A DNA stretch of 64,000 nt. Source: Fidelibacterota bacterium. Lineage in GTDB: Bacteria > Fidelibacterota > Marinisomatia > Marinisomatales > S15-B10. The translations under genes and the position numbers were made by a program. Below the pieces are notes generated by a model. That model saw only the letters and a list, made by a program, of their open reading frames with translations. It ran no database searches and was not told the DNA's origin. Each line of letters starts with the position of its first letter. The stretch's first letter is position 1. Of this stretch, positions 26,438 to 45,213 are shown in pieces. Where the stretch lies: contig JBHIAI010000001.1 in NCBI GenBank assembly GCA_046861655.1, positions 43,027 through 107,026 on the forward strand, given 5' to 3'.

Positions 26438-26494
26438 CGGAATCCTGGTATATGGTACATAGTATTGAACATCATCCCCGCCTATATTTTGAAT

Positions 26495-27202
26495 ATGAAG
26501 AGAGTAACGGAGGCAGTTAGGGAGCTTTTGAGAACGCCCGAAGCGAGGTCATGGAATCAGGATCTCCTGGCGAAAAGAATTGGGGTTAGAAGAAACACGT
26601 TGTGGCGGTGGAGGCTGGGAAAGGGAAAGCCCCATGAGGGCAACTTGATCAGCCTGGCAGAGGTATTCAAGAAAGACATCATTTGGAACGATCAGCATAC
26701 GGAGATTGAGTTTGTTGAACGGACAGTAAGACAGGGAGAGGAGCTCCCCCCGTCCGTAGTGGATCGGTCACCGGGTGCCGCATGGGAGCGCCCCGATCTG
26801 GCGCCTCCGGGACTCCCCGTGGTAGCATGGGTAGCCGGGAGAGCTGAGGGTTTCTTCTCTGAAGATGGATATCCGGTGGGGAGGGGTGATGAGGAGGTCG
26901 CCAGACCCTACGATCTCGAGGATATGACGGCTTACGGCCTGAGAGTACCCGTAAAGAGGGGAGAGGCCCCGGAGCCCTTTCTGAGGCCGGGAGATAGGGT
27001 GATCTGTTCCCCGGCGGCGACCGTAAGGAACCGGGACATGGTGGTGGTCCGGATAAAAGATCAAGCCATTATCCTCAGGGAAATCCAGTTCGAAGGCGAC
27101 AGGATTAGACTTGTCAGCTACAATCCGGAATATGAAGACCTGGAATTGGACAAAGATGAATTAAAGTGGGTTCACAAGGTGGTCCATATCAAGAAGAAAT
27201 GA
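26495..27202 (+). CDS. XRE-HTH / peptidase S24-like (CI/LexA-type) regulator
   Basis: HTH QDLLAKRIGVRRNTLWRW; PVVAWVAG; AYGLRV..PGDRV; LVSYNPEY. Confidence 0.85.
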   Translation: MKRVTEAVRELLRTPEARSWNQDLLAKRIGVRRNTLWRWRLGKGKPHEGNLISLAEVFKKDIIWNDQHTEIEFVERTVRQGEELPPSVVDRSPGAAWERPDLAPPGLPVVAWVAGRAEGFFSEDGYPVGRGDEEVARPYDLEDMTAYGLRVPVKRGEAPEPFLRPGDRVICSPAATVRNRDMVVVRIKDQAIILREIQFEGDRIRLVSYNPEYEDLELDKDELKWVHKVVHIKKK

Positions 27203-29640: not shown

Positions 29641-30459
29641 CTAGATATTCTCAAGTAATACCGAAGCCGAATACGGAATGATTTCCCCTGTGTTTCTTTC
29701 TCTCCATATCTTCTCCGTGTGGGCCGCATTGTACACATGCCACTTCCCCGGGAATCGTTTGGCTATGGATCTCAGTATACCCATTTCTTTCTCTGAGAGA
29801 GGGTCGGCTGTGGTTTCGTCTGCTCTCATTATTTGACTCACTAACTCCCTGTAATTGTTGAGCTGAGGACCAAGCGGTAAAGCTGCATAGCTGCTTCCAG
29901 TCATGCTTCTGCCCAAATCCCTGAATGAGACCATGTCTGTGTACCATAGATACTTGGCTGTGAATAAGAATCTGTCATTTTCAACCAAAAGCCGCTTTTT
30001 CAGGATACTCTCGAGCTCCTTGATCACCAGTTTCAGCCGTGCCATTGAGAACTCTCTGTTTCCAGAGTATTCTGTTCCCAGGTCTTCACTCGTCAGTACG
30101 GTCCGAAGTGCCCTGTCCATGGAACGATTCTGAATTGAACTTCCTTCCCAGCGCTTGATGCTGGCGATTCCGACTGAAATCCTTGTTGCGAGATCGCGTT
30201 GACTCAATGATCTCTGTTTTCTCAACTCTCTTATTTCATCTCCGGTAAGCAGCCCCACTTTCTTTCGATAGACATTCGAAATGGTTTTTTGAATCGCGGT
30301 GGTTTGGTCTGTAGTACCTATCTCGATCCCACATCCGGGGCATTCGAAATACTCCGCCTCAATCGTAAAACTCTCGCCGCGGAACTCGATACTTTCGACC
30401 TTTGTGACCAAATTCATCTCACCGTGATCATTGGGGCAGAATTGATGTTGTTTTGTCAT
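29641..30459 (-). CDS. MqsA-like antitoxin (Zn finger + HTH) fused to DUF4065/Panacea domain
   Basis: CPND..CPGC; LLTGDEIRELRK HTH; KYLWYTD...GRSMTGSSYAALPLGP. Confidence 0.8.
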   Translation of the reverse strand: MTKQHQFCPNDHGEMNLVTKVESIEFRGESFTIEAEYFECPGCGIEIGTTDQTTAIQKTISNVYRKKVGLLTGDEIRELRKQRSLSQRDLATRISVGIASIKRWEGSSIQNRSMDRALRTVLTSEDLGTEYSGNREFSMARLKLVIKELESILKKRLLVENDRFLFTAKYLWYTDMVSFRDLGRSMTGSSYAALPLGPQLNNYRELVSQIMRADETTADPLSEKEMGILRSIAKRFPGKWHVYNAAHTEKIWRERNTGEIIPYSASVLLENI

Positions 30460-31025
30460 TCTCTGGCTGATCGTAGCTTTCCATCAAGCTCCTTGTAGCT
30501 AGGTCTCGGCAACCACGAAATTTACGGTATCAAATGATACCATACAACGAGTGATTTTGTGAAGGCTACCCGCGAGCCTGTCGCATCTGTTCCGTGCGAT
30601 CATCTCCGGTTCGAGAGGGCTTGAAAAAACCCTAATAAAGTGATTACGACCGACCAAATAATGTGATTACCCACACCCACACATCGACTGCTGTGCTTAT
30701 GTAAGGTGCTGCCACCTTTATTTTTTGTTGCAATATACGCCTTTTGTATGCTAACCTTGAAAAAGAACCAAGCGGGAGTGAGGTAGCGAAGCCACAGGTG
30801 AAAAACGAGACCCAACAGGGAGGAAACCATGAGAAACCAATGGGGACCTGACATGGATCACACCTACATACCCCAGGATATAGCCGTGCTGTGCGACAGG
30901 ATCGGGGGAGATGAAAATCGTTCTGGAAAAACTTTTCAGGCAGATTTTATAGTAAATTATGTGTATATTTAAGTATTATTAATTATATTTTCATTATATG
31001 AAACTCTTAATTCTTTAGGTTTGCC

Positions 31026-32270
31026 ATGATTGCCCATGTGGATATGGATTGTTTTTTCGTGGCCATCGAACGGTTCAAGGACCCCTCCCTGGTGGGGAAA
31101 GCCGTGGCCGTGGGGGGGGACCCTGAGAAAGGCCGGTCGGTGGTCACCTCGGCCTCGTACGAAGCCAGGCAGTACGGCATCCATTCGGCCATGCCCATGG
31201 CCGTGGCCATCAGGCGGTGCCCACACCTTGTGGTGGTGCCGGTGGATTTTGAGCGGTATGACCGGGTCCACCTGGAGGTCAAGAAGGTCCTGGAATCGTT
31301 CTCTCCGGCTGTGGACATGACCTCCATCGATGAAGGGTACGTGGACTTGACCGGCACCGGTCGGCTGTGGGGACCTCCCCTGAAGGCGGCAGAGCGTATC
31401 AAGTGGGCGGTACAGGAAGCCACGGGTCTCACCTGTACCGTGGGCCTTGCGAAGAACCGGCTGGTGGCCAAAATCGCCTCGGGCTGGGCCAAGCCCGATG
31501 GACTTCTTCATATTCCACCCCAGCAGGTGGAAAAACTTCTGGCTCCCCTGCCGGTGGAGGCCATCCCCGGAGTGGGCGAGAAAATGGCCGCTACCTTGCG
31601 GTCCCTGGGCCTGGAGAGGGTGGGACAGATCCAGGCGGTGGATGAATCCCTCATGGACGCCACCTTCGGAGCCTTCGGCCGGAGCCTGTGGCGAGCCGCC
31701 CGGGGAGAAGATCCGTCATGGGGGAGAGATCCCGCCAGCCGCATCCCGTCCGGGCGGGACAGGGGTGCGGGACACGGGACATCAAGGAAGTCCATCAGCA
31801 AAGAGATCACCTTCCCGGTGGATACCACCGACCGCAAGTACCTGGTCTCGGTTCTCCACTATCTTACGGAAAAAGTGTGCCGAAGCTTACGACAAAAAAG
31901 TAGGGCGGCCCGGACGGTGAACGTGAAACTGCGGTATGAAGATTTTGAAACCCGCCTTGCCTCGGCCACGTTTAACGAACCGGAAAACAGGGACGAGGCA
32001 ATCTTTTCATCGGCCTGGCGCTTGATGGAGAAGGCCATTACCCGGCGTGTGGGGATCCGCCTGGTGGGGGTTTCCCTGTCGAATCTCACCGGGTGTGTCC
32101 ATCAAACCGACCTGTTTGAGGAAACCGGATGGGTGAAAGGGTGGCAAAGGCTACAGGCGGTGGACCTGACCCGGGAGCGGTTTGGGTTTAATGCCGTCCT
32201 TTCCGGGGAAGCCATCTATCTTCTTGCCTACCCGCCTGACAGGCTCTTCCGACACCGGGGTTCGGTGTGA
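31026..32270 (+). CDS. dinB: DNA polymerase IV (Y family)
   Basis: HVDMDCFF, SYEARQYG, SIDEGY, AKIAS..KPDG. Confidence 0.93.
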   Translation: MIAHVDMDCFFVAIERFKDPSLVGKAVAVGGDPEKGRSVVTSASYEARQYGIHSAMPMAVAIRRCPHLVVVPVDFERYDRVHLEVKKVLESFSPAVDMTSIDEGYVDLTGTGRLWGPPLKAAERIKWAVQEATGLTCTVGLAKNRLVAKIASGWAKPDGLLHIPPQQVEKLLAPLPVEAIPGVGEKMAATLRSLGLERVGQIQAVDESLMDATFGAFGRSLWRAARGEDPSWGRDPASRIPSGRDRGAGHGTSRKSISKEITFPVDTTDRKYLVSVLHYLTEKVCRSLRQKSRAARTVNVKLRYEDFETRLASATFNEPENRDEAIFSSAWRLMEKAITRRVGIRLVGVSLSNLTGCVHQTDLFEETGWVKGWQRLQAVDLTRERFGFNAVLSGEAIYLLAYPPDRLFRHRGSV

Positions 32271-32390: not shown

Positions 32391-32795
32391 ATGCAGCGAG
32401 GAAGCGTAAACCGGGTCTTTATCGTGGGGTATCTAGGGTCGGATCCTGAAAGCCGGTACACCGCTGCGGGAACCGCCACCACGACATTCCGGGTGGCCAC
32501 CAATGAGTCCTGGCGAGACAGCGAGGGGGAGCTCCAGGAACATACCGAATGGCACCGCTGCGTGCTGTTTGGCAAAGCGGCCGAGATGGCGAAAGAATAC
32601 CTGAAGAAAGGCCGTCTGGTGGCCCTGGAGGGGCGTCTGAGAACCCGCACCTGGGAAGATAAAGAGGGTGTCCAACGGTCCACTACGGAAATCCGGGGGG
32701 ATACCTTTACCATGCTCGGCCGGAGAGGGGATACGGCGGAAGAAGCACCCGAAGAAGAGTCGGAACCGGCCAGCGATGACGATCTTCCGTTTTAA
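32391..32795 (+). CDS. ssb: Single-stranded DNA-binding protein
   Basis: VNRVFIVGYLG, TEWHRC, C-terminal DDDLPF. Confidence 0.95.
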   Translation: MQRGSVNRVFIVGYLGSDPESRYTAAGTATTTFRVATNESWRDSEGELQEHTEWHRCVLFGKAAEMAKEYLKKGRLVALEGRLRTRTWEDKEGVQRSTTEIRGDTFTMLGRRGDTAEEAPEEESEPASDDDLPF

Positions 32796-33145: not shown

Positions 33146-33916
33146 GTGCGCATCCGTCCCCTGTTCATCTGTAAGAGCCACTACACCTTCCTGGAAGGGA
33201 TTCACGCCGTTTCCGACCTTGTGGAATTCGCCCGGGACCGGGGTATAACCCCGCTGTGCCTGGCAGACAAAAACGGGCTGTACGGCGCCGTGGAATTCCT
33301 TACCGCCTGCCGGGACGCGGGGATTCACCCCATCCTGGGGACCGAACTGGTCCAGGGGCCCAGACAGGCAATCCTTCTGGCCAGGAATCACACAGGCTAC
33401 GAGGAAATGTCGGAGTGGGTGACCCGACTGCACCTGGACGGACTTCGCATCGATAAGGACCTTGAGGTAGACTCCCCCAATCTTCTGGTTCTGTGCCGGG
33501 ATCCGTTTCTCCTTCAGCGCTGGCTCAAACCGGGAAAAAACTCCCTGTTTCCAGCCCTGACTCTCACCAACCGGCAAGCCTGCCAGACGGTGCTGAACCT
33601 TCTCAGCCGGAGACCGTCCCGCCAGGGCGGGACCCGGATCCCCGCGGTGCCGGTGGTGGAGGTCAACCTTCTCTCCCCAAACGATACATCGCTGTACCGG
33701 ATGGTCAGCGCCATCCGCCTGGACTGTACGGTCCAGACCCTGCCCACGGAAGACCTGTACCCATGGGAAGAAGCCCTGGAAAGGCTTTCCCCTGAGATCG
33801 AGACCGATACCCCTCCCTATGACCCCCTTCTGTCTGGAACAGACCTCGCCCACCGATGCCAGCTGGAGCTTGACGTTAACAGCTATCATCTGCCAGCGTT
33901 CACACCAACAGAGTAG
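33146..33916 (+). CDS. dnaE2: Error-prone DNA polymerase III alpha, N-terminal PHP half
   Basis: SHYTFLEG, LADKNGLYGAVEF, GIHPILGTEL, LLARNHTGY; ends RCQLEL...HLPAF. Confidence 0.8.
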   Translation: MRIRPLFICKSHYTFLEGIHAVSDLVEFARDRGITPLCLADKNGLYGAVEFLTACRDAGIHPILGTELVQGPRQAILLARNHTGYEEMSEWVTRLHLDGLRIDKDLEVDSPNLLVLCRDPFLLQRWLKPGKNSLFPALTLTNRQACQTVLNLLSRRPSRQGGTRIPAVPVVEVNLLSPNDTSLYRMVSAIRLDCTVQTLPTEDLYPWEEALERLSPEIETDTPPYDPLLSGTDLAHRCQLELDVNSYHLPAFTPTE

Positions 33917-33979
33917 TCTGCAACCCCCCCCTGCAACCTTATTTATTAAAAAATATGGTGCCATATGTTTAAAAAACCC

Positions 33980-34008
33980 TTGAAATATTTGTTCATGACT
34001 TATAGAAT
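33980..34008 (+). promoter_or_regulatory. Sigma70 promoter of the lrp-like gene
   Basis: TTGAAA-17-TAGAAT ending 10 nt before ATG 34019. Confidence 0.65.
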
Positions 34009-34018
34009 GTAGAATTCC

Positions 34019-34480
34019 ATGGTAGATGAAAAGGACAGGATCATTCTGGATTTACTCCAGGATAGTGGCCGGAGGACTGCCAGGGAGGTGGCAGACCATG
34101 TGGATCTGTCGGTACCGGCGGTAGGGGAGCGGATCAAGAAACTGGTGGATGAAGGGATTATCGGTGAGTTCCGGGCGGTGGTGGATCCCAAGAAACTGGG
34201 GTACGATGTGACGGCGTTCATCCTGGTGGTGATGGCGTCCTCGGAACATTATGAGGATCTTGTGACGGAGGCGAGGGGGTCGGATGAGGTGCTGGAATGC
34301 CACTCCATCACGGGGGAGGGTTCCCACATCTTGAAAGTTCGAACCCACGATACCTCTTCCCTGGAGGGACTTTTGAGGGAGATTCAGTCCTGGCCCGGGG
34401 TGATTCGCACCCATACCATGGTGGTCATGTCCACCTTCAAGGAAACCACCCGGTTGAAACTTCATCAGAGGAAAAAATAA
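34019..34480 (+). CDS. Lrp/AsnC family regulator
   Basis: DEKDRIILDLLQ HTH; ECHSITG; GVIRTHT. Confidence 0.93.
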   Translation: MVDEKDRIILDLLQDSGRRTAREVADHVDLSVPAVGERIKKLVDEGIIGEFRAVVDPKKLGYDVTAFILVVMASSEHYEDLVTEARGSDEVLECHSITGEGSHILKVRTHDTSSLEGLLREIQSWPGVIRTHTMVVMSTFKETTRLKLHQRKK

Positions 34481-34533
34481 ACCACAGAGGACACAGAGTA
34501 GGATCTATAGTTTTTCTCTGCGCTTTCTGTGGT
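34481..34533. repeat. Intergenic inverted repeat
   Basis: ACCACAGAGGACACAGAG ... CTCTGCGCTTTCTGTGGT (14/18 complementary). Confidence 0.55.
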
Positions 34534-34555
34534 CCCATCTTCTCAAGTTAAAGTC

Positions 34556-35698
34556 ATGTCCAGCGGGGAGGTTGACTATGACGTGGTGATTGTGGGGGCC
34601 GGGGTGGTGGGACTGGCGGTGGCCTGGGCCCTGGCGAAGAGCAAGGTAACTTCCGTCTTAGCCATAGAGAAAGAATCGAGTTACGGCCGGGGGACCTCCG
34701 GTCGAAACAGTGAGGTTATCCACTCCGGTATCTACTATCCCAAGGATTCCCTGAAAAGTCATTATTGCCGTGCCGGGAGAGACGCCTTATACCGATTCTG
34801 CCGGGAAAACGATGTATGGCACGCCCGGTGCGGGAAACTGGTGGTGGCTCAGAAGGGACAGGAGAGGGAGTTGGAGAGGCTTCATGAACAGGCCCTGCGT
34901 AATGAGGTTCCGGATACCTATCTCATGGACGCAACGGAAATGGCTACCCTGGAACCGGACGTGTCGGGTAGGCGTGCCCTCTTCGTGGGATGTACGGGTG
35001 TCGTATCGGCCCATGATCTCATGTCGGCCTTCTACCGCCACTCCGTAGAAGCGAACCACGACCTGGTGGTTAAGGCCCGGGTGGTCGGGGTGGAATCCCG
35101 GGGTGACCGGTACGCGGTAGCGGTGGAAGGTCCCGGAGAGGCAACCTACACTGTAACGGCCACCTGGGTGGTGAACGCGGCGGGACTCTACGGTGACCGG
35201 GTGGCGGCGTTTCTGTGGGGGTCGAAAGAAGCCGACGGCCTGACCCTTCATTACTCCAAGGGATCGTACTTTAGACTTTCTTCCCGATGGCGCCATCGCG
35301 TTCAACACCTGGTTTATCCCCTGCCGGACCCTGAGCACGATTCTTTGGGTATTCACCTCAGTTTCGATCAGGGCGGTGCCGTGAGGCTGGGTCCCGATGC
35401 CGAATGGCTTGCGGAAAACAGGGAGGATTATACCGTGCCTGAGGACCGGAAAGAGATGTTCTACACGGCCGCAAAACGGTATTTACCGGGGCTTGATCTT
35501 GAGGATTTGAGTCCCGACTTCGCCGGGATCCGGCCGAAACTGGCGGGACCGGATGAAGGCCCCTCTGATTTCTACATCCAGCATGAAACCTCCCGGGGAT
35601 ATCCCGGATGGATCAACCTCATGGGGATTGACTCTCCGGGATTGACGGCGGCCATCGCCATCGGCGAGGATGTCGCCAAATGGATTACGGAAGCATAG
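34556..35698 (+). CDS. FAD-dependent oxidoreductase (LhgO-like)
   Basis: GAGVVG, TSGRNSEVIHSGIYY, GIDSPGLT. Confidence 0.88.
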   Translation: MSSGEVDYDVVIVGAGVVGLAVAWALAKSKVTSVLAIEKESSYGRGTSGRNSEVIHSGIYYPKDSLKSHYCRAGRDALYRFCRENDVWHARCGKLVVAQKGQERELERLHEQALRNEVPDTYLMDATEMATLEPDVSGRRALFVGCTGVVSAHDLMSAFYRHSVEANHDLVVKARVVGVESRGDRYAVAVEGPGEATYTVTATWVVNAAGLYGDRVAAFLWGSKEADGLTLHYSKGSYFRLSSRWRHRVQHLVYPLPDPEHDSLGIHLSFDQGGAVRLGPDAEWLAENREDYTVPEDRKEMFYTAAKRYLPGLDLEDLSPDFAGIRPKLAGPDEGPSDFYIQHETSRGYPGWINLMGIDSPGLTAAIAIGEDVAKWITEA

Positions 35699-35739
35699 AC
35701 TCGCAACGATAAAACCCACGAACGAAAAGGAGAACAGAC

Positions 35740-37152
35740 GTGACACCGAAGGAATTTTTCGAGTTCTGTAAGGAAAATCGTGCCGAGATGGTCGATCTGA
35801 AGTTTGTGGACCTTTTGGGTACGTGGCAGCATTGTTCATTCCCGATTGACACCCTGGATGAGAGTACGTTCGAGGACGGCCTGGGATTCGACGGTTCCTC
35901 CATTCGCGGATGGCAGGGAATCCACATGTCGGACATGCTGGCGGTTCCCGATCCAGCCACCACGTGTCTGGACCCCTTTTTCGCGAAGCCCACGGTCAGT
36001 GTGATCGCCAATATTGTGGATCCGGTGACGAAACAGGACTACACACGCGATCCGCGTCATGTCGCCCGGAAAGGGGAACAGTACCTTCGATCAACGGGGA
36101 TCGCGGACACCTGCTACATCGGCCCGGAGCCCGAGTTTTTCATCTTTGACGAAGTGAGATTTGAGCAGAACCAGCATACGGGGATGTACAGGATTGATTC
36201 TATTGAAGGTGCCTGGAATACAGCCCGCTTCGAAGAACCCAATCTGGGGTACAAACCCAGTTTTAAGGGAGGATATTTTCCGGTGAGTCCTACCGATACG
36301 TACCATGACCTGCGCGGGGAAATGGTGTATGAGATGCGCAAGGTAGGAATCATCGTTGAAGCCCACCACCACGAGGTGGCTACAGGAGGTCAGGGTGAGA
36401 TTGATATGAGATACGCGCCGCTGTTGAAAATGTCGGACCAGTTCATGTGGTACAAATACATCATCAAGAACGTGGCCAAGCGGAATGGGAAAACCGTAAC
36501 CTTCATGCCGAAACCCGTTTTTGAAGATAATGGTAGCGGAATGCACACCCATTTTTCATTATGGAAGGGGGGGGAACCGCTGTTTGCGGATGACGGGTAC
36601 GCCGGATTGAGCAAACTTGCCCTGAATGCCGCGGGGGGTATCCTGAAACACGCGCCGGCCATTCTGGCGTTCGCGGCGCCCACCACCAATTCCTACCGTC
36701 GATTGGTTCCAGGATTTGAGGCACCGGTGAACCTGTGCCTGTCGGCCAGAAACCGGTCTGCGGCAGTCCGTATCCCCATGTATTCGGCGAATCCCAAGTC
36801 CAAGCGGCTTGAATTCCGTTGTCCGGATCCCACGTGTAACGGGTATTTGACCTGGACGGCTATGATGATGGCGGCTATCGATGGTATCCAGAATCAAATC
36901 GATCCCGGGAAACCTCTGGATAGGGATATTTACGAAATGAAACCGGAAGAACTGGAAGGGTACCATCATACACCTGGGTCACTGGAAGAGGCCCTGAAGG
37001 CGCTGGAGGATGATCATGAGTTCCTCACAGAAGGCAAGGTCTTTACGGAGGATTTGATTGAGACCTGGATCCGGTGGAAACGCGATGAGGAGCTAGCGCC
37101 GCTGGCCCGGAGACCCCATCCATTTGAGTTCCATCTGTATTACGACGCGTAG
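35740..37152 (+). CDS. glnA: Glutamine synthetase type I
   Basis: [35 protein letters not shown]. Confidence 0.97.
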
Positions 37153-37193
37153 CTTTGGGGGGTACCGCTCACGCTATCTTCCCGGTCGTCTGG

Positions 37194-38579
37194 ATGAATA
37201 GAAGGTTTCCCGTCGTTGTTCTCCTATTTCATTTTCTGAACTATGCGGCGGGACCGGGACCGCCCCATTCGGTTCAGGTGCTGGCGGTCAAGACCGTGGT
37301 GAACCCGTCAGTGGAAAAACTCATGGCCGCCGCCCTGGCTGACAGTTCTGCCTATGAACGTTTGGCGTATCTCACCGATACGTTCGGTCCCCGTTTCAGC
37401 GGGACGCGGAATCTGGAAGATGCCATCGACTGGATTCTTTCCGAGATGACGGAAGACGGGTTACAGAATGTTCACGGAGAGGGCGTTAGGGTCCCCCGGT
37501 GGGTCCGGGGAACCGAGAAGGTGGAACTGTTAGAACCCAGGTATAAGAATCTGGCCATGTTGGGACTGGGAGGGAGCGTAGGAACCCCTCCCGAAGGAAT
37601 CACGGCGGAGGTTCTGGTGGTCAAGAATTTTGATGAATTGGCGGCTCGCGCGGATGAGGCGGAAGGGAAGATCGTTCTTTTCAATGCCCCTTTCACCACG
37701 TACGGAGAGACGGTGGAGTATCGTATCGGCGGTGCCAGTGCCGCAGCCAGGGCGGGGGCGGTGGCCAGCCTGGTGCGTTCCGTGGGACCGTATTCCATGA
37801 ATACCCCTCATACAGGGGGCATGGGGTACGAGGAGGGCGTTCGCAAGGTTCCCCATGGGGCTATCACCGTGGAGGACGCCATGATGATTCAGCGGATGGT
37901 GAACGGTGGAAAAAAGGTGGTGGTCCGCATGTACATGGAGGCCCATTTTGAGGAAGATGTTCTCTCCCGGAATGTGGTGGGGGAGATTGTGGGGCGTGAA
38001 AAGCCAGAGGAGGTGGTAGTTCTGGGAGGCCACATCGATTCGTGGGATGTGGGGACGGGAGCCATGGATGATGCGGGGGGATGTGTGGCGGCCTGGGAGG
38101 CAGTCAGGCTCATGCACGCGTTGAACGTACGGCCCCGGCGGACAGTCCGGGTGGTGTTATGGACCAATGAAGAGAATGGGCTCCGGGGAGCGAAGGCTTA
38201 CCGGGACGCCCATCAGGACGAATTGGGGAATCACATACTGGCCATGGAGTCTGACAACGGCGTATTCAAGCCCATGGGGTTTGGGTTTACCGGTTCGGAT
38301 CGGGCCAGGGGGATGGTGGAGGAGATTGTGAAGTACCTCAAGCCCATCGAGGCCGATTCCATCCTGGAGGGGGGCAGTGCCGCCGATATCGGTCCCCTTG
38401 AAAAGGAGGGAGTTCCCGTCATGTCCTTGAAGGTGGACCGGTCCCGTTATTTCTGGTATCATCATACTCATGCCGATACGATTGACAAGCTCGATCCCCA
38501 CGAGCTCAATCTCTGTATCGCTGCCCTGGCGGTCATGGCCTACGGGGTGGCCGACCTCCCCGAGCGCCTTCCCCGGTAG
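37194..38579 (+). CDS. M28 family peptidase (carboxypeptidase Q-like)
   Basis: GGHIDSWD, GAMDDAGG, NEENGL, MESD, YHHTHADT. Confidence 0.9.
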   Translation: MNRRFPVVVLLFHFLNYAAGPGPPHSVQVLAVKTVVNPSVEKLMAAALADSSAYERLAYLTDTFGPRFSGTRNLEDAIDWILSEMTEDGLQNVHGEGVRVPRWVRGTEKVELLEPRYKNLAMLGLGGSVGTPPEGITAEVLVVKNFDELAARADEAEGKIVLFNAPFTTYGETVEYRIGGASAAARAGAVASLVRSVGPYSMNTPHTGGMGYEEGVRKVPHGAITVEDAMMIQRMVNGGKKVVVRMYMEAHFEEDVLSRNVVGEIVGREKPEEVVVLGGHIDSWDVGTGAMDDAGGCVAAWEAVRLMHALNVRPRRTVRVVLWTNEENGLRGAKAYRDAHQDELGNHILAMESDNGVFKPMGFGFTGSDRARGMVEEIVKYLKPIEADSILEGGSAADIGPLEKEGVPVMSLKVDRSRYFWYHHTHADTIDKLDPHELNLCIAALAVMAYGVADLPERLPR

Positions 38580-38624
38580 TCGGGAGTTCACCCATCACTT
38601 AAGGAACTGTTTCACGAGTGTTGA

Positions 38625-38658
38625 ATATGATAGAATTATATTATTATATTATGATATC
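38625..38658 (+). promoter_or_regulatory. 8-bp-periodic operator array of TA module 1
   Basis: ATATGATA GAATTATA TTATTATA TTATGATA TC. Confidence 0.5.
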
Positions 38659-38676
38659 ATTTACCGGGAGGATCCC

Positions 38677-38907
38677 ATGGGAATGACGACATTGAGGCTT
38701 TTGGATGACCAGTTAAAGGCTCTGCGGATGATTTCTGCCCGGGAAGGTCAGTCCATGAATGCAATTCTCCGTGAATTAGTAGAGGCGTTTCTGGAGGATT
38801 ATTTTGACAATCTGGCAGCAGACAAGGCCCTTGCGGAGCAGGACAAAGGAGAGTGGACGGATCTGGATGAGTTGATGGATGCTGTCCGGCCCAAAGCTTC
38901 GGGGTAA
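38677..38907 (+). CDS. RHH-type antitoxin (RelB-like)
   Basis: TTLRL N-terminal strand; FLEDYFD; GGAGG RBS; upstream of RelE. Confidence 0.8.
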   Translation: MGMTTLRLLDDQLKALRMISAREGQSMNAILRELVEAFLEDYFDNLAADKALAEQDKGEWTDLDELMDAVRPKASG

Positions 38908-38951
38908 GAAGTCCCGCATCGGATGGGCCCCTTTTCCGGAAAAATTGAGTT

Positions 38952-39209
38952 GTGAATTATCGGGTGCGGCTCGGCAAACGAGCCGTGAGGCAGTTCCGAA
39001 AACTTCCCGCTGGTATACAGGATCGGATGTACGGGCAGCTTTCTCGCCTTGCGGAAGATCCGTTCGCAGGGGACGTGGAGAAATTGAGGGGAAAGAAAAA
39101 CCGTTTTCGTCTCCGTTCCGGACGCTACCGGGCGATTTATGAGGTTGACCACGCCGTGAAGATCATCTCTGTTCTTGACGTTGGTCACCGCAAGGACATC
39201 TATCGCTAG
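38952..39209 (+). CDS. RelE/ParE family toxin
   Basis: RLRSGRYRAIY...VGHRKDIYR. Confidence 0.92.
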   Translation: MNYRVRLGKRAVRQFRKLPAGIQDRMYGQLSRLAEDPFAGDVEKLRGKKNRFRLRSGRYRAIYEVDHAVKIISVLDVGHRKDIYR

Positions 39210-39225
39210 GCATGAAGGAGTTGAA

Positions 39226-40026
39226 ATGGAATACCGGTTAAGTCCCTCAGACCTGACGTTTCTCTATGAAGGGTGTAAACACTGTTTTGTGCTGAAGGTC
39301 AAGCACGGTATTTCCCAGCCCTCCATCCCCATCCCCGGGGTGTTCAGCGTTATAGGAAGGTTGCAGAAAGAGTACTATTCGGGCAGGCGAACGGAAGCAT
39401 TCTGTCCTGATTTGCCGCCAGGGGTGATTGCCTACGGTGAGAAACGGGTAAGGTCGAGCTCCCTGCGTGTGGCAGGGTCAGACAGTACGTTGTATATCAA
39501 TGGCCGGTTTGATATCGCGGCGGAGTTTGATGATGGCTCGTTCGGTGTTCTGGATTTCAAAACGGGAAAACCCGCCCAGGAGAAAACGGATATGTATGCC
39601 CGGCAGTTGCACGCGTACACGCTGGCTCTGGAAGACGCTGCGGACGGGTATTTGAGTCTTTCTCCCGTCAGCCGGCTTGGGTTACTGTATTTCACTCCGG
39701 ACCGGTGTGAGCATGATGGCGGGACCCGGCAGGTTCTTGAGGGGGAGATGCAGTGGGTGGAGGTCAAACGGAATGATGACGGGTTCAGGGAGTTTCTGGA
39801 CGATGTCGTTACGTTGTTGGATGGATCCCTTCCTTCGCCTGAGGGCGATGCGTGCGACTGGTGTCGCTACCTGGAGACGGCCGGTAGTTATGGCGGGGGA
39901 GAGGATGGGGGAGATATCCCGGACTGTCCGGTATGTGGCAGTGGCATGCGGTTAAGAACCGGCAAGTACGGGCAGTTCTGGTCCTGCACAAGGTATCCCG
40001 ACTGCAAGGGCACCCGGAATCTTTAG
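39226..40026 (+). CDS. PD-(D/E)XK nuclease with C-terminal topoisomerase-type C4 zinc finger
   Basis: GRFDI...VLDFKT..YARQLHAY; CPVCG..GKYGQFWSCTRYPDC. Confidence 0.82.
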   Translation: MEYRLSPSDLTFLYEGCKHCFVLKVKHGISQPSIPIPGVFSVIGRLQKEYYSGRRTEAFCPDLPPGVIAYGEKRVRSSSLRVAGSDSTLYINGRFDIAAEFDDGSFGVLDFKTGKPAQEKTDMYARQLHAYTLALEDAADGYLSLSPVSRLGLLYFTPDRCEHDGGTRQVLEGEMQWVEVKRNDDGFREFLDDVVTLLDGSLPSPEGDACDWCRYLETAGSYGGGEDGGDIPDCPVCGSGMRLRTGKYGQFWSCTRYPDCKGTRNL

Positions 40027-40199
40027 GATTGGGAACGGGAAACTTGTGGAATGGCTTCGAAAGAGTTCGGGTACCAAGTGCCGGGGAAAGGGTAATACCC
40101 TTACAAGAGGGTAAAAGAAGAGGTAATGCGGGAATGGGCTCAGTCTATGGGAGTGAGCAGATAGACAATCTCATCAATAGGCAAAGGCGGACGTCTTAG

Positions 40200-40376
40200 C
40201 AGAGTTGTTGGGAAGACCAAAGGTTGCACATTTGTCTGTAACCGTTGACCCTTATACTTTTCTGGATTTGGATGTCCAAGATGTCCCCGCGCTCAACATG
40301 GAAGATAATCTCTTCGAAGGAGATGCCACGTTCTTCTCTTAATTTTTCATTCTTATCGTTATCCAATATCAACACA
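40200..40376 (-). pseudogene. BrnT-like toxin remnant
   Basis: DNDKNEKLREERGISFEEIIFHVERGDILD, then a frame change to HPNPEKYKGQR; no antitoxin. Confidence 0.6.
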
Positions 40377-40450
40377 TCAGAGGGGATCGCCGCTCCCGAA
40401 GGTCCGGGAGCGGCAATGACAGGATAGTGGCTACTTAAGGAGCGGTAAGC

Positions 40451-40915
40451 TTACTCTGAAGCCGGGGCTTCCGGCTGGGGTTCCTCAGGCGCTTCCGGTG
40501 CTGCCTCTCCGGGTTTGCCGTAGACCAGGCCGATAGCCAAACCGGCCGCTGCCACCTCCAGGGTGTAGACAAGGATCATGACCACGGTGGGGCCAAAGCC
40601 CACCGGGAACGCCAGGTCAAAGAAAATCCCGAACGGTATGGCTGCGAAAAGGCCCAGAAAAATGCCAAACCGGAGCCCCTCGCCCGCAGGCGCTCCCCCT
40701 TCGTATCCCTTGGGAAACAGGTAGGCCATGATCAATACCATGGCCAGGACGGCGATCAAGGGCAAGTACATTGGCCCTTCCATGGATGCTCCTGTTGCTT
40801 CCATGACGTTTGTTTCAATGTAGCTCTTGAAGATGAGTTGCTCCAGGATGACATAGGCGACGACATTGCCGACGAAACCCCCCAGGGTTGCGAGTAGGAA
40901 TTTCTTAGTGTCCAT
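40451..40915 (-). CDS. Hypothetical 4-TM membrane protein
   Basis: GGAGG RBS; hydrophobic segments; EGLRFG. Confidence 0.75.
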   Translation of the reverse strand: MDTKKFLLATLGGFVGNVVAYVILEQLIFKSYIETNVMEATGASMEGPMYLPLIAVLAMVLIMAYLFPKGYEGGAPAGEGLRFGIFLGLFAAIPFGIFFDLAFPVGFGPTVVMILVYTLEVAAAGLAIGLVYGKPGEAAPEAPEEPQPEAPASE

Positions 40916-41020
40916 GCTTCACCCTCCTGTGGTTTGGTGATTGCTCAAGGTGGGAGAATTTAGTCTTACTCCGGGGCCGACGGCAAGCGAAAGTCAAGCT
41001 TGTTCATGGTTACCCCTTGC

Positions 41021-41054
41021 AAGTGATATTGTAATATTGTAATATCACGATATC
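41021..41054 (+). promoter_or_regulatory. 8-bp-periodic operator array of TA module 2
   Basis: AAGTGATA TTGTAATA TTGTAATA TCACGATA TC; near-palindromic. Confidence 0.55.
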
Positions 41055-41070
41055 AAATGGAGGTTCTTAC

Positions 41071-41280
41071 ATGTCAGCAACGACGTTGAGACTACCCGAA
41101 GAAAAACTAAGAGCGCTTCGTGTGGTATCCAGCCTTCTGAATAGGCCCATGAGCAAGATCATTGAAGGACTGGTAGATGAGTTCCTGGAGGACTACTACG
41201 ATCTGAAAGAGGCCGAAGAGGCCCGGAAAGAGGAAGGGACGATTCCCTGGGAGGTTGTGAAGAAGGAACTGGGACTGTAG
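41071..41280 (+). CDS. RHH-type antitoxin (RelB-like)
   Basis: TTLRLP, FLEDYYD, IPWEVVKKELGL. Confidence 0.85.
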   Translation: MSATTLRLPEEKLRALRVVSSLLNRPMSKIIEGLVDEFLEDYYDLKEAEEARKEEGTIPWEVVKKELGL

Positions 41281-41281
41281 C

Positions 41282-41542
41282 TTGTCCCAATATGGTATAG
41301 AGTTTAAGCCGGCCGCCAGACGGGGTATGGCGAAATTACCCCAAGATATACAAAGAAGGATTGGTCAGCAAATTGACTCTCTGGCCTCCAATCCCCTTCC
41401 CCCGGGGGTCAGGAAGTTAACAGGCAGTAAGAATACCTACCGTGTCCGTGTTGGCGATTATCGTATTCTGTATGATCTCTACCAGGGCAGATTAGTTGTT
41501 CTCATTGTGGGGGTTGGTCATCGTCGCAATGTTTACAGGTAG
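41282..41542 (+). CDS. RelE/ParE family toxin
   Basis: YRVRVGDYRILY...VGHRRNVYR. Confidence 0.93.
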   Translation: MSQYGIEFKPAARRGMAKLPQDIQRRIGQQIDSLASNPLPPGVRKLTGSKNTYRVRVGDYRILYDLYQGRLVVLIVGVGHRRNVYR

Positions 41543-41543
41543 G

Positions 41544-42062
41544 GTGACAAATTTCTTGGTGACGGGACGGCCCGGAGTGGGAAAGACCACCCTGGTGGAA
41601 CAGGTGGTGAAGAGGCTGAACGTGCCGGTGGGGGGCTTTTATACCCGGGAGATCCGGGAGAGGGGAAGACGCGTGGGCTTTAGCCTCTCCACCTGGGAAG
41701 GGCAAACTGGGACCCTATCCCACGTGGAGGTTGAAAGCCCCTTTCGAGTGGGGAAATACGGGGTCAATATCCAGGTAGTGAACGACATCGGAGTGCCCGC
41801 CATTGACGAGGCCGTGGCCAGTGGGAACCTCATCGTGATCGATGAGCTGGGCCGCATGGAACTGTTTTCCAAAAAGTTTCAACAGGTTGTTCTGGAAGCT
41901 CTGGACAGCGAGGTCCCTCTTCTGGGCTCTATCCAGGAACGTCCCCACCCGTTTCTGGATGCCATCCGGAACCGACCCGATGTGGAACTGATTCATATCA
42001 CCCTGGAAAACCGGCATGACCTGGTGAGAGAGATCGTGAGACGGTTAGGAGGCAGGGGTTAG
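41544..42062 (+). CDS. NTPase (THEP1 family)
   Basis: TGRPGVGKTT, GGFYT, VGKYGV, IDELGRME. Confidence 0.9.
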   Translation: MTNFLVTGRPGVGKTTLVEQVVKRLNVPVGGFYTREIRERGRRVGFSLSTWEGQTGTLSHVEVESPFRVGKYGVNIQVVNDIGVPAIDEAVASGNLIVIDELGRMELFSKKFQQVVLEALDSEVPLLGSIQERPHPFLDAIRNRPDVELIHITLENRHDLVREIVRRLGGRG

Positions 42063-42100
42063 AGCCAGTTGGCAGTAACAGGCCAGTAACCAGGGACCAG

Positions 42101-42583
42101 TCAGGGGATGTTCTTTCCCGATGGATCGGGACGGGTTGACTGAGATTTTTTCTCGAGCTTTCGGATCCGTTCGATCTGTTTCAGATTCCACTCGTCGTCA
42201 CTGTAGGGAGTGCCAAACCAGGCATCCAGGATTTCCTTTAAGACCGCTTCCGGCGTGGACCGGAGGCTCAAAGCCAGTACGTTGGCATGGTTCCAGATGC
42301 GGGCCCCTTTGGCCGTTTCCGCATCGTGGCACAGAGCCGCCCGGACACCGGGAACCTTATTGGCCGCGATGGAACATCCGGTGCCGGTCCAGCACATGAC
42401 CACGGCCTCATCTGCTTTTTTGTCCACGACCTGCTGAACCGCCTTTTCGGTCACCTCCGGCCAGTCCAGCGATTCGTCCCCTTCCGGACCGAAATAGATG
42501 ACCTCGTGACCGCGGGTCTTGAGCTCTTTCAGAACCGCCTCCACCAGGTGGGTCCGTTCATCCGTGCTGACGGCGAGTTTCAT
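42101..42583 (-). CDS. RpiB/LacA/LacB family sugar-phosphate isomerase
   Basis: CWTGTGCSIAANKVPGVRAA, WNHANVL. Confidence 0.9.
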   Translation of the reverse strand: MKLAVSTDERTHLVEAVLKELKTRGHEVIYFGPEGDESLDWPEVTEKAVQQVVDKKADEAVVMCWTGTGCSIAANKVPGVRAALCHDAETAKGARIWNHANVLALSLRSTPEAVLKEILDAWFGTPYSDDEWNLKQIERIRKLEKKSQSTRPDPSGKNIP

Positions 42584-42689
42584 GGGGTAAAATTTAAGCC
42601 GCGGGTTGGACGAATTACACGGAATATAGGGAACCACGAACGACACGATTGGGAGGCATACGCATTACGAATTACGCATCATGCTTCGT

Positions 42690-42792
42690 CCCTTCGTCAA
42701 GCTCAGCATGACAGAAGGGGATGGTCACCCCGAGGCTTTTGCGTGACCTTGAAGCTTTTCCTGTCACCAAGCATCCAGTTGAGCGAAGCGAA
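42690..42792. repeat. Degenerate REP-like element upstream of the dnaE2 catalytic half
   Basis: CCTTCGTCAAGCTCAGCATGACA ... GTCACCCCGAG ... GAGCGAAGCGAA resembles recalled GTCA-type REP arms. Confidence 0.35.
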
Positions 42793-45213
42793 ATGAAAAC
42801 AAACAGGTCTGCTGAGCTTCTGATCAAGCTCTGCCACCGGGAAGTCCCGAAACGGTATGATCCCATCACCACGCAAGTATTAAAAAGATTGACCCATGAA
42901 CTGGACATCATCATCGACAGGGGATACGCCGACTATTTTCTCATCGTGTGGGATGTCGTCCAGTGGGCCAGAAAAAAGGGCATTCCCGTGGTGGGCCGGG
43001 GATCGGCGGCGGGGAGCTTAGTGTCTTACCTGCTGGGGATCACCCCGGTGGATCCCCTCAAACACCGCCTGCTGTTCGAACGGTTCTTGAACCCCGAACG
43101 CCAGGAGCCCCCGGACATTGACATCGATCTGTGCTGGAAACGGCGTGATGACGTCATTGAATACGTGTACAAGCGGTACGGCAAGGACAGGGTGGCCATG
43201 ATATCCACCTACAATACCTACAAGCTTCGGGGAGCCGTGAGGGATGTGGCTCGAGCCATGGGACTGTCGGAAACGGAAATCAACGGACTGGCGAAGACTC
43301 TACCGCGGTCCTTCGAGACAGACGAGGACGAAAACGGAATGTTGCACCCCCCCCGGTCCTCCCTCCAGGGAGGAAGAAAAGGGGATGTATCCCCTGAGGG
43401 CGATGGTCGCTACGGGGAGGTCTTTGCCATGGCCAGACGATTGTTGAACCGGCCCCGCCATATGGGCATCCACGCCGGGGGAATCGTCATTGCTCCCGAC
43501 AGGATCACAAAATACGTCCCCCTTCAGCCGTCGACCAAGGGACCCGTGGTCACCCAGTTCGATATGCATGGGGTGGAGAAGATGGGACTGGTGAAAATCG
43601 ACCTTTTGGGTCAGCGGTCCCTGACGGTGGTGGCGGACATGGTGAAAACCTTGAAGGGAAAATACGGAATCCGGTTTGATCTGGACCGCATGCCGGCCAT
43701 GGATGAAAAGACCAAGGCCCTGGTTCGAGCCGGCCGGACCATAGGGGTGTTTCAGATTGAGTCGCCCGGAATGCGGGGGCTGCTGAAAAAGCTGAACGTG
43801 GATTCTTTTGAGATGATCACCGCCGCCAGTTCGGTCATCCGGCCTGGACCGTCCGATTCGGGGATGCGGCGCCATTTCATCCTGCGCCACTACGGGAAAG
43901 AGAAGGTACAGACACCCCACCCAGCAATGACGGAGATCTTGAAGGAAACCTACGGGGTTATGCTCTATCAGGAAGATGTGATCAAGATCGCGGAAGCCAT
44001 TGCGGGGTGGAGTCTGGGAGCATCGGATAAACTCCGCCGGTCCATGAGCGGGAAAAGGGTGGAAGAGCCGTTCATGGAACACCGGGACCGGTTCATCCGG
44101 GATGCGGTAAAACGGGATATCAACGTGGATGCCGCCGTAGAGATCTGGCGGCAGATGGAAGCGTTTTCGGGGTATGCCTTCTGTAAGGCCCATTCGGCGG
44201 CTTATTCGGTGATTTCCGTTCAGTGCGCGTGGCTGAAGGCACACTTTCCGGCGGAATTCATGGCGGCGGTCATGTCCAATTACGGAGGGTTCTACCATAC
44301 CTCCTGTTACCTGGAGGAGGCCAGGCGGATGGGAATTAAAATTTTGCCGCCGGATGTGAATACATCTGAACCGCATTTTACGGCCCAGGATAAAGTCGGG
44401 GGAACCAACGCGACCCCCTGGATACAGGTGGGGCTTCTTCAGGTAAAGTATCTTACCCGGGCCACGCTGACCCGGATCCTGGAGAAGCGCCAGGAACGCC
44501 CATTTGAGTCACTGGAGGATTTCTGCCGGCGGGCAAACCCGTCCTACCGGGAAGCAGAATCCCTCATCCGGTGCGGCGGATTTGATTGGTTTCCGTACAC
44601 CCGTCCCCAGCACCTGTGGAGGCTGAAGCTCATTTTCGACAGGATCAAGGATTCGGGAAACCCCTCCGACACCCACGAAGAACTGTTTCCTGAGACCGTA
44701 AAAATCCAGGGGATGCTGGCGGGAAGATCCCGGCGGTGGACCGGATCCTGGCGCGGCGGGATGGTATGGGAAAAACGCCAGTTTCCGGACGTCATGCCGG
44801 AGGTGGATTATCCCCTGGAAAAAAAGCTGAGGGACGAACTGGAATTGATGGAACTCACCGTGGAAAAACATCCTCTGTGGATGTACCGGAATGCTCTGAA
44901 GACTTGTTCGGAAAAAGTGGGACCGTTTGTCCATGCCAGGGATCTGGACACCTGCCGGGGGAAACGGGTCAGGATGGTGGGATGGATGATCACCACCCGT
45001 CAGGCCCGGGCGAAGGGAGGAAAACTGATGCAGTTTCTTTCCTGCGAGGATTTGACCGGCACCTTTGAATGTATCCTTTTCCCGGAAACCTACCGGAAAT
45101 ACGGCCGGCTTATCCGTGACCGGGGACCGTATATCATCGCGGGAACTGTGGAAGACGATTTTGGCCACACCCCGGTCAGGGTGGACAAACTCACCCTTGT
45201 TAGACGTCCATGA
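42793..45213 (+). CDS. dnaE2: Error-prone DNA polymerase III alpha, catalytic half lacking PHP
   Basis: GRGSAAGS, PPDIDID, KIDLLG, VFQIESP, YAFCKAH, C-terminal OB fold; start 42721 or 42793. Confidence 0.9.
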   Translation: MKTNRSAELLIKLCHREVPKRYDPITTQVLKRLTHELDIIIDRGYADYFLIVWDVVQWARKKGIPVVGRGSAAGSLVSYLLGITPVDPLKHRLLFERFLNPERQEPPDIDIDLCWKRRDDVIEYVYKRYGKDRVAMISTYNTYKLRGAVRDVARAMGLSETEINGLAKTLPRSFETDEDENGMLHPPRSSLQGGRKGDVSPEGDGRYGEVFAMARRLLNRPRHMGIHAGGIVIAPDRITKYVPLQPSTKGPVVTQFDMHGVEKMGLVKIDLLGQRSLTVVADMVKTLKGKYGIRFDLDRMPAMDEKTKALVRAGRTIGVFQIESPGMRGLLKKLNVDSFEMITAASSVIRPGPSDSGMRRHFILRHYGKEKVQTPHPAMTEILKETYGVMLYQEDVIKIAEAIAGWSLGASDKLRRSMSGKRVEEPFMEHRDRFIRDAVKRDINVDAAVEIWRQMEAFSGYAFCKAHSAAYSVISVQCAWLKAHFPAEFMAAVMSNYGGFYHTSCYLEEARRMGIKILPPDVNTSEPHFTAQDKVGGTNATPWIQVGLLQVKYLTRATLTRILEKRQERPFESLEDFCRRANPSYREAESLIRCGGFDWFPYTRPQHLWRLKLIFDRIKDSGNPSDTHEELFPETVKIQGMLAGRSRRWTGSWRGGMVWEKRQFPDVMPEVDYPLEKKLRDELELMELTVEKHPLWMYRNALKTCSEKVGPFVHARDLDTCRGKRVRMVGWMITTRQARAKGGKLMQFLSCEDLTGTFECILFPETYRKYGRLIRDRGPYIIAGTVEDDFGHTPVRVDKLTLVRRP

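Follow-up and report, generated by a model that had tools for sequence, protein, structure and literature searches.

A putative DnaE2B-like accessory DNA polymerase encoded by separate PHP and core genes in a family of Fidelibacterota

Can a cellular DnaE polymerase be built from two separately encoded proteins, one providing the PHP domain and the other the catalytic core? The question is raised by a 64,000-nucleotide stretch of a Fidelibacterota metagenome-assembled genome (GenBank GCA_046861655.1, contig JBHIAI010000001.1, positions 43,027 to 107,026; hereafter the window, whose own numbering is used below), in which a preliminary description had noted a dnaE2 gene divided into two intact open reading frames (ORFs) 8.9 kb apart on the same strand. 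The names carried by its closest proteins and records assign the genome to the order Marinisomatales of Marinisomatota (Marinimicrobia, Fidelibacterota). The assembly comprises 2.06 Mb in 198 contigs and is 92.8% complete; the sequencing runs containing the stretch are hydrothermal-vent metagenomes from a single study. As judged from sequence comparison and structural modelling, the two genes probably encode the two subunits of one non-covalent accessory repair polymerase. The ORFs in question are:

33146-33916, + strand: PHP half of the split DnaE, 256 amino acids, GTG start, ending HLPAFTPTE-TAG just past the LPxF motif
42793-45213, + strand: core half of the split DnaE, 806 amino acids, ATG at 42793; palm, thumb, fingers, HhH and OB, without a C-terminal domain

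Both ORFs lie on the same strand, as first reported, and 8,876 bp separate the stop of the PHP half from the start of the core half. The open frame of the latter spans 42712-45213 (+), the 806-amino-acid protein beginning at ATG 42793 with MKTNRSAELLIKLC. Pfam recognizes Pol3 alpha, finger, HhH and OB regions in the core, which carries the motifs PDIDID, KIDLLG and GRGSAAG; the OB match stops at residue 825 of the 830-amino-acid frame, leaving no domain C-terminal to the OB fold, a feature of DnaE2 (PMC3919608). Relative to the closest full-length relative, P0035 (LELGKYYFPPF-SLPEGETP-YSYLCKLC), the break replaces only a linker of ~8 residues, which bears out the earlier statements that the core begins directly after LPxF and that essentially nothing has been lost. 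The alignment places the break in the PHP/palm linker, ahead of the first palm helix. The PHP half is indeed complete in length and ends as described, but it matches PHP in Pfam over residues 9-100 only, and its metal site is degenerate: in alignments to the pattern HHDHEH[C/H]DH, the first two histidines read I and K, the last histidine reads N, and TDH reads ADK, ADE or ADR, with the glutamate (E67) retained. Lacking nearly all metal ligands, the PHP half is therefore not a proofreader.

The same breakpoint was sought in related genomes and found in 13 of the 15 sampled from the family. The PHP half is present in 13 genomes and the core in 12 at E<1e-150, plus one more (G010) in gapped pieces; in all 13 genomes holding the polymerase, which represent five genera, the halves are separate ORFs with an identical break, and a joined frame occurs in none. 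PHP frames measure 245-285 and core frames 700-875 amino acids; every PHP half stops 2-6 residues past LPxF/Y, and the conserved part of every core opens at SxxLLxxxC. Where both halves lie on one contig, the gap is ~7.9 kb (G002), 15 kb (G003), 12.5 kb (G005), 7.3 kb (G007), 12.4 kb (G014) or 5.2 kb (L100). The last is a contig labelled SAR202 that bears the full family arrangement and is probably misbinned. None of the family genomes searched has one half without the other. As to the two genomes of genus g4 that make up the remainder, G004 (64% complete) is uninformative, and in G008 (76% complete), which belongs to a genus nested within the family, neither the core nor an orthologous dinB was found and ssb directly adjoins lrp. 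Neither lexA nor recA was found in these two incomplete genomes.

Database searches agree with this picture. Among 120 listed core homologues, the top 34 (56-100% identity) are 736-870 amino acids long and have no PHP match, and 84 of the next 86 contain PHP, the remaining two being labelled partial. The search for standalone PHP homologues returned 26 clusters, several with tens to hundreds of members, and 25 of them terminate 0-8 residues past [LF]Px[FY]. In phylogenetic analysis (all trees reported here are quick trees), the PHP-less cores (19 rows) form one clade with an SH-aLRT of 100, distinct from both DnaE1 and the intact second DnaE carried by other families in the order. Across 400 genomes of the phylum, the polymerase was detected at E<1e-145 only in this family (10 of 12 sampled members). 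The sequences point to a single ancestral fission shared by the family. The split may extend beyond the sampled family, as suggested by deeply diverged split halves with the same break (P0146, P0016 and P0015; PHP 29% identical, cores 62-66%); when the deepest-branching core, P0016, was used to scan metagenomes, one family locus was recovered and all other matches were distant DnaE.

Both halves are under purifying selection. Ratios of nonsynonymous to synonymous substitution (dN/dS; Nei-Gojobori estimates for pairs within genera, which share branches and so are not independent) were 0.20-0.35 for the PHP half (p<0.01 in 10 of 10 pairs) and 0.09-0.23 for the core half (p<0.01 in 9 of 9), compared with 0.09-0.32 for dinB and 0.05-0.19 for lrp. 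The core ratio equals that of adjoining housekeeping genes; of the genes compared, the PHP half is under the weakest constraint. The combination of unsplit close relatives and relaxed selection on the halves, which would have spoken for a broken gene, was not found.

The class of the polymerase is indicated by several features. The same genome also contains an intact DnaE1, a 1156-amino-acid open frame on another contig (C192) within the DnaE1 clade. The split core falls outside that clade and groups with the dinB-dnaE pair of Persicobacter (Bacteroidota; SH-aLRT 92, in a tree without a curated DnaE2B reference), far from two ImuAB-linked DnaE2 references. The only Y-family match in the genome is an active-type DinB, with no inactive ImuB (ImuA was not searched separately). 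The dnaE2 label given at first rests on tree, architecture and gene context, because with NCBIfam the core stays below cut-off for both models and matches dnaE (PRK05673, 701 bits) better than dnaE2 (PRK05672, 539 bits); the single-chain PHP-Pol3-HhH-OB architecture of DnaE2 is replaced by two ORFs in 13 of 13 genomes. By these sequence features the enzyme would be an accessory C-family polymerase, DnaE2B-like and of the kind that works with an active DinB. A role in repair is suggested because it is a second DnaE without a C-terminal domain, stands beside an active DinB and groups with a dinB-dnaE pair. Second DnaE1-like copies in two family genomes (L255 of G014 and L256 of G012) lie outside the family in the tree and are probable contamination.

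The closest known system is the DnaE2B-PolY-RecA module (Timinskas et al. 2026, PMC12926913), which likewise comprises a second DnaE beside DnaE1, with a degenerate PHP site and no C-terminal domain after OB, linked to an active Y-family polymerase instead of ImuA/ImuB. The system described here differs in having two genes, a split not mentioned in the main text of that paper, and in being dispersed rather than a cassette, with lexA elsewhere and ssb between dinB and the PHP gene. DinB is the probable partner of the split DnaE; its tail aligns in register with the N-terminus of RecA, at a score no better than that of a control tail (E 0.03 vs 0.021).

A complex model of core residues 1-640 with the PHP half gave an ipSAE of 0.83 (best of three controls, 0.00), with contacts agreeing to at least 98% and a partner pLDDT of at least 83; the ipSAE mark is reached by 116 of 157 solved pairs and by 2 of 215 mismatched pairs. 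The score by itself adds little, because halves of a split gene pass by their likeness to solved structures, and it would reflect resemblance to solved DnaE rather than binding by this copy. The predicted PHP-core interface and the domain order are those of single-chain DnaE structures (Thermus aquaticus 2HPI/3E0D, Escherichia coli 2HNH/5FKU, Mycobacterium tuberculosis 5LEW/7PU7); in all of these full-length solved chains, unlike here, the PHP domain is covalently attached. In the PHP half, conservation is higher at the 39 positions predicted to lie in the interface, among them LPxF, G44-Y46, T93 and I190, than at the other 212 (0.79 vs 0.62, p=8e-5; within the split clade and not controlled for burial), and the hydrophobicity of the interface positions matches that in 83 full-length relatives (0.60 vs 0.58). 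In E. coli Pol III, an inactive PHP domain is integrated with the core, the enzyme unfolds cooperatively, and PHP mutations reduce stability and activity (PMC3666897). From the conservation and hydrophobicity of the interface and from this precedent, we infer that the halves bind as a non-covalent heterodimer.

In the proposed mechanism, the single ancestral fission fell within the short surface linker that joins the PHP domain to the first palm helix. The PHP protein, devoid of metal ligands, would be produced separately and would dock non-covalently on the core through the interface used in single-chain DnaE, thereby restoring the scaffold. If expressed and active, the assembled enzyme would most likely carry out damage-induced, error-prone synthesis together with DinB and RecA.

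Several observations weigh against the two proteins acting as one enzyme. On the core side, conservation is only slightly higher at the interface than elsewhere (0.88 vs 0.83, p=0.044), and the interface residues there are also part of the palm fold. In three of four distance bins, the rate of PHP relative to core is above that of unsplit relatives (3.27 vs 1.92, 2.20 vs 1.63 and 2.36 vs 1.89), and the closest bin shows the reverse (1.69 in split vs 2.31 in unsplit relatives); the constraint on the PHP half is therefore real but partly relaxed. The cores of G007 and L100 lack an ATG, GTG or TTG before the first conserved helix, the G011 core breaks frame inside the OB domain (L076 ~5981-6114, 700-amino-acid frame; either a real truncation or an assembly error), and the G010 core, as noted, is in gapped pieces. 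Finally, no regulatory site common to the two genes was detected. In G007 (L065 8866-8920) and L100 (~9940-10000), the core frame opens GTA-ATA with a similar extension, which suggests an ATA start or a shortened core protein.

The surroundings of the two genes bear on these doubts and on the history of the split. The remaining features of the region are:

30734-30750, no strand assigned: candidate LexA-type operator RTAC-N7-GTAY, 292 bp upstream of dinB, score 12.2
31026-32270, + strand: dinB, Y-family polymerase with intact DMD and SIDE motifs and a QxxLF-like tail (Pfam IMS; NCBIfam PRK02406 above cut-off)
32391-32795, + strand: ssb, a chromosomal backbone gene of which no other copy was found in the genome
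34019-42583: intervening backbone, with lrp, an FAD oxidoreductase, glnA, an M28 peptidase, two ParE-type toxin-antitoxin (TA) pairs, a PD-(D/E)XK nuclease, a hypothetical protein, an NTPase and an rpiB-like gene (minus strand)
42656-42792, no strand assigned: short repeated intergenic DNA directly before the core gene, with 15 other blastn matches in the same genome
45291-47816, + strand: penicillin-amidase-family gene, a constant downstream neighbour that serves as backbone marker

The contents first listed for the interval (lrp, glnA, a peptidase, an rpiB-like gene and two TA pairs) were found there, and the FAD oxidoreductase, nuclease, NTPase and small hypothetical protein complete the list. 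Gene order in the family is fixed as dinB-ssb-PHP-lrp-oxidoreductase ... rpiB(minus)-core-amidase, with lrp, oxidoreductase and rpiB constant and the middle of the gap variable; DMD and SIDE are present in 13 of 14 family dinB copies, the 14th being interrupted by a contig end. Both ParE toxins were confirmed by Pfam, as was one antitoxin (DUF6290), the other being recognized by eye only. The TA pairs (38680-41542) and the nuclease, which has a Top1 zinc ribbon (39175-40026), were not found in the relatives' loci examined and would be variable cargo of the backbone. Upstream of dinB lie genes for a helix-turn-helix protein with a weak LexA-peptidase-like match (26465-27202) and for an MqsA/SocA-like antitoxin (29641-30459).

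In sister families, ssb directly precedes lrp in 5 of 22 outgroup lrp loci (G016, G031, G019, G033 and G045), and in G045, G019 and G016 rpiB precedes the amidase gene with no core between them. Because sister families share this backbone without the polymerase, the gap itself is backbone common to them and not foreign cargo, a point not foreseen in the preliminary description; for the same reason, an insertion of lrp...rpiB into dnaE2 is not established. No remnant of either half was detected in 13 sister or g4 loci (best E 0.097). Either the split predates the family, all three genes having disappeared from the sister families as they did from genus g4, or a cassette was inserted at ssb and the core reached its present place through a block swap or through duplication with reciprocal loss; the DnaE1 tree does not resolve the family from its sister families. 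In 49 loci of distant relatives, dinB is nearby in 8, several as lexA-dinB-dnaE, and ssb is in the locus in only 1. The intact second DnaE of the order was considered as a parent and ruled out by 33-43% identity and a separate branch. At the right end of L070 (G006:C31, 10000-16001), a second ssb-lrp-oxidoreductase run without a PHP gene has a GC content of 0.41-0.49 vs 0.50-0.58 and lower identity than the other copy in G006; the contig is probably a chimera with sister-family DNA.

With this context, it can be asked whether the PHP protein serves the core at all. The core might be a working polymerase without PHP, the PHP protein being kept for another job, as an adaptor to DinB, RecA or SSB, and binding the core weakly or not. 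Consistent with this, in 13 of 13 genomes the PHP gene keeps its place beside ssb and dinB, with dinB upstream, and the core gene is located elsewhere, the PHP half has evolved faster since the split, and the core thumb is shortened and variable compared with full-length relatives; in modelled ImuA-ImuB-DnaE2 complexes, moreover, the largest interface with ImuB is that of the PHP domain of DnaE2 (PMC12926913). However, the best-kept PHP residues are the predicted core-facing ones, including the terminal LPxF, no core-only genome turned up in the family, and an adaptor role and docking are compatible with each other. We consider a PHP protein detached from the core in function unlikely, although of the alternatives it is the one to be taken most seriously.

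A more doubtful proposition is that the split enzyme is inactive as a polymerase or slowly decaying, its halves being non-catalytic partners or remnants. The whole set has been lost in genus g4 and is absent from sister families, 2 of 13 core genes have frame breaks, and DnaE2 is non-essential where tested (PMC3919608). Against decay, the catalytic aspartate motifs PD[IV]D and K[IV]D are present in 13 of 13 cores, the core is as constrained as neighbouring housekeeping genes, and frames remain open even though the PHP halves have diverged to ~40% identity.

There is still less to recommend a covalent rejoining of the halves, by DNA excision in some cells, RNA trans-splicing or a cryptic split intein, notwithstanding the conserved order and strand, the near absence of lost coding sequence, the variable core starts (with no standard start in G007 and L100) and the short repeat before the core gene in the window. 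As first reported, intein motifs are absent, no Pfam intein family matching either half; the extensions, 2-6 residues past LPxF and mostly fewer than 25 before the first core helix, are unconserved, and peptides of that length are too short for an intein fold. No meaningful Rfam match was found in the window region or in seven relatives' loci, the longest words shared by the junctions are 6-10 nucleotides, within background in 13 of 13 genomes, and repeats, whether in the window region or at the junctions, do not exceed chance level. The repeat before the core gene is not kept at that place in relatives, whose gaps there differ (70-517 bp). Excision would also remove housekeeping genes such as glnA, and no contig joining the halves was present in four runs of a single study, which may represent the source sample (rare forms drop out of contigs). 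The suggestion that the gene is reconstituted by rearrangement thus finds no support.

That the split is an artefact of a fragmented assembly (198 contigs, no contig of the four runs spanning the whole stretch) or a recent disruption is excluded by the same split and neighbours in 12 other genomes and L100, by contigs that run from the PHP stop to lrp (X1) and from the gap into the start of the core (X1, X2 and X3), and by dN/dS well below 1. Of the four options offered in the preliminary description, the two-subunit polymerase is the one left standing.

How might such a pair be regulated? The palindrome RTAC-N7-GTAY stands just before lexA in 11 of 12 loci, the 12th (from the window's own genome) being at a contig end; its presence at lexA is the only independent check, because the motif was first spotted by visual inspection at dinB and the PHP gene. 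With a matrix built from 11 sites upstream of lexA, for which 2.5% of random 350-nucleotide windows reach a score of 10, scores of at least 10 were obtained before dinB in 10 of 13 genomes and before the PHP gene in 4 of 14, the best site at the latter being fixed over the start codon in 10 of 14 and not recognizable in G000 (the window's own genome) and G001. None reached 10 before core (0/13), ssb (0/12), lrp (0/13) or rpiB (0/13), and in none of the 12 recA loci was a box found in the preceding 200 nucleotides; recA there appears to lie close behind another gene. A scan of the window's own genome gave 31 matches of score at least 11, not mapped to genes. The motif at lexA and dinB is a candidate SOS box of this uncultured marine group, for which a literature search returned no paper on an SOS box. 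A candidate box also lies ~240 bp upstream of ssb in sister family f3, which has no split polymerase (L230 G016 8164; L235 G031 4313).

Because the candidate box precedes dinB and, weakly, the PHP gene but never the core, a switch can be imagined, in which a core expressed from a promoter of its own, devoid of an SOS operator, remains inactive until the damage-induced dead PHP subunit activates it. We regard this as a tentative idea, with the odds against it. The asymmetry could equally mean that the core is constitutive and in excess, or that it has a missed site; a sigma-70 scan before the core gene returned no sites.

A two-gene DnaE has precedents of other kinds. Cyanobacterial DnaE is also a cellular DnaE derived from two separate genes, with a trans-splicing intein (PMC3919608); here, in contrast, there is no intein and presumably no covalent product, the enzyme would be accessory rather than replicative, and the break is at the PHP/palm linker, the cyanobacterial one being much further C-terminal (the NCBIfam half-models PRK09532 and PRK07373 meet at about residue 485 of the 830-amino-acid core frame). 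The minimal Pol III alpha of group 2.2 jumbo phages likewise consists of two standalone proteins from distant genes, for which non-covalent reconstitution has been proposed (Iyer et al. 2021, PMC7824862). The phage cut, as reported there, lies inside the catalytic module and other domains including PHP are absent; the enzyme described here is cellular, retains every domain and is divided where two domains meet. A literature search covering the main texts of surveys, and few subscription journals, turned up no cellular DnaE whose PHP domain is encoded by a gene of its own.

Surveys that discard or rejoin fragments (PMC3919608) would miss such enzymes, and the database names of the halves, ‘PHP domain-containing protein’ and ‘DNA polymerase III subunit alpha’, lead to their being overlooked. 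If the switch were true, the PHP domain would be an inducible activating subunit of a mutator polymerase. More generally, a separate PHP gene maintained by selection in a cellular lineage offers a natural pair of parts with which to ask what a dead PHP domain does: whether it is a scaffold, a Y-family adaptor or a switch.

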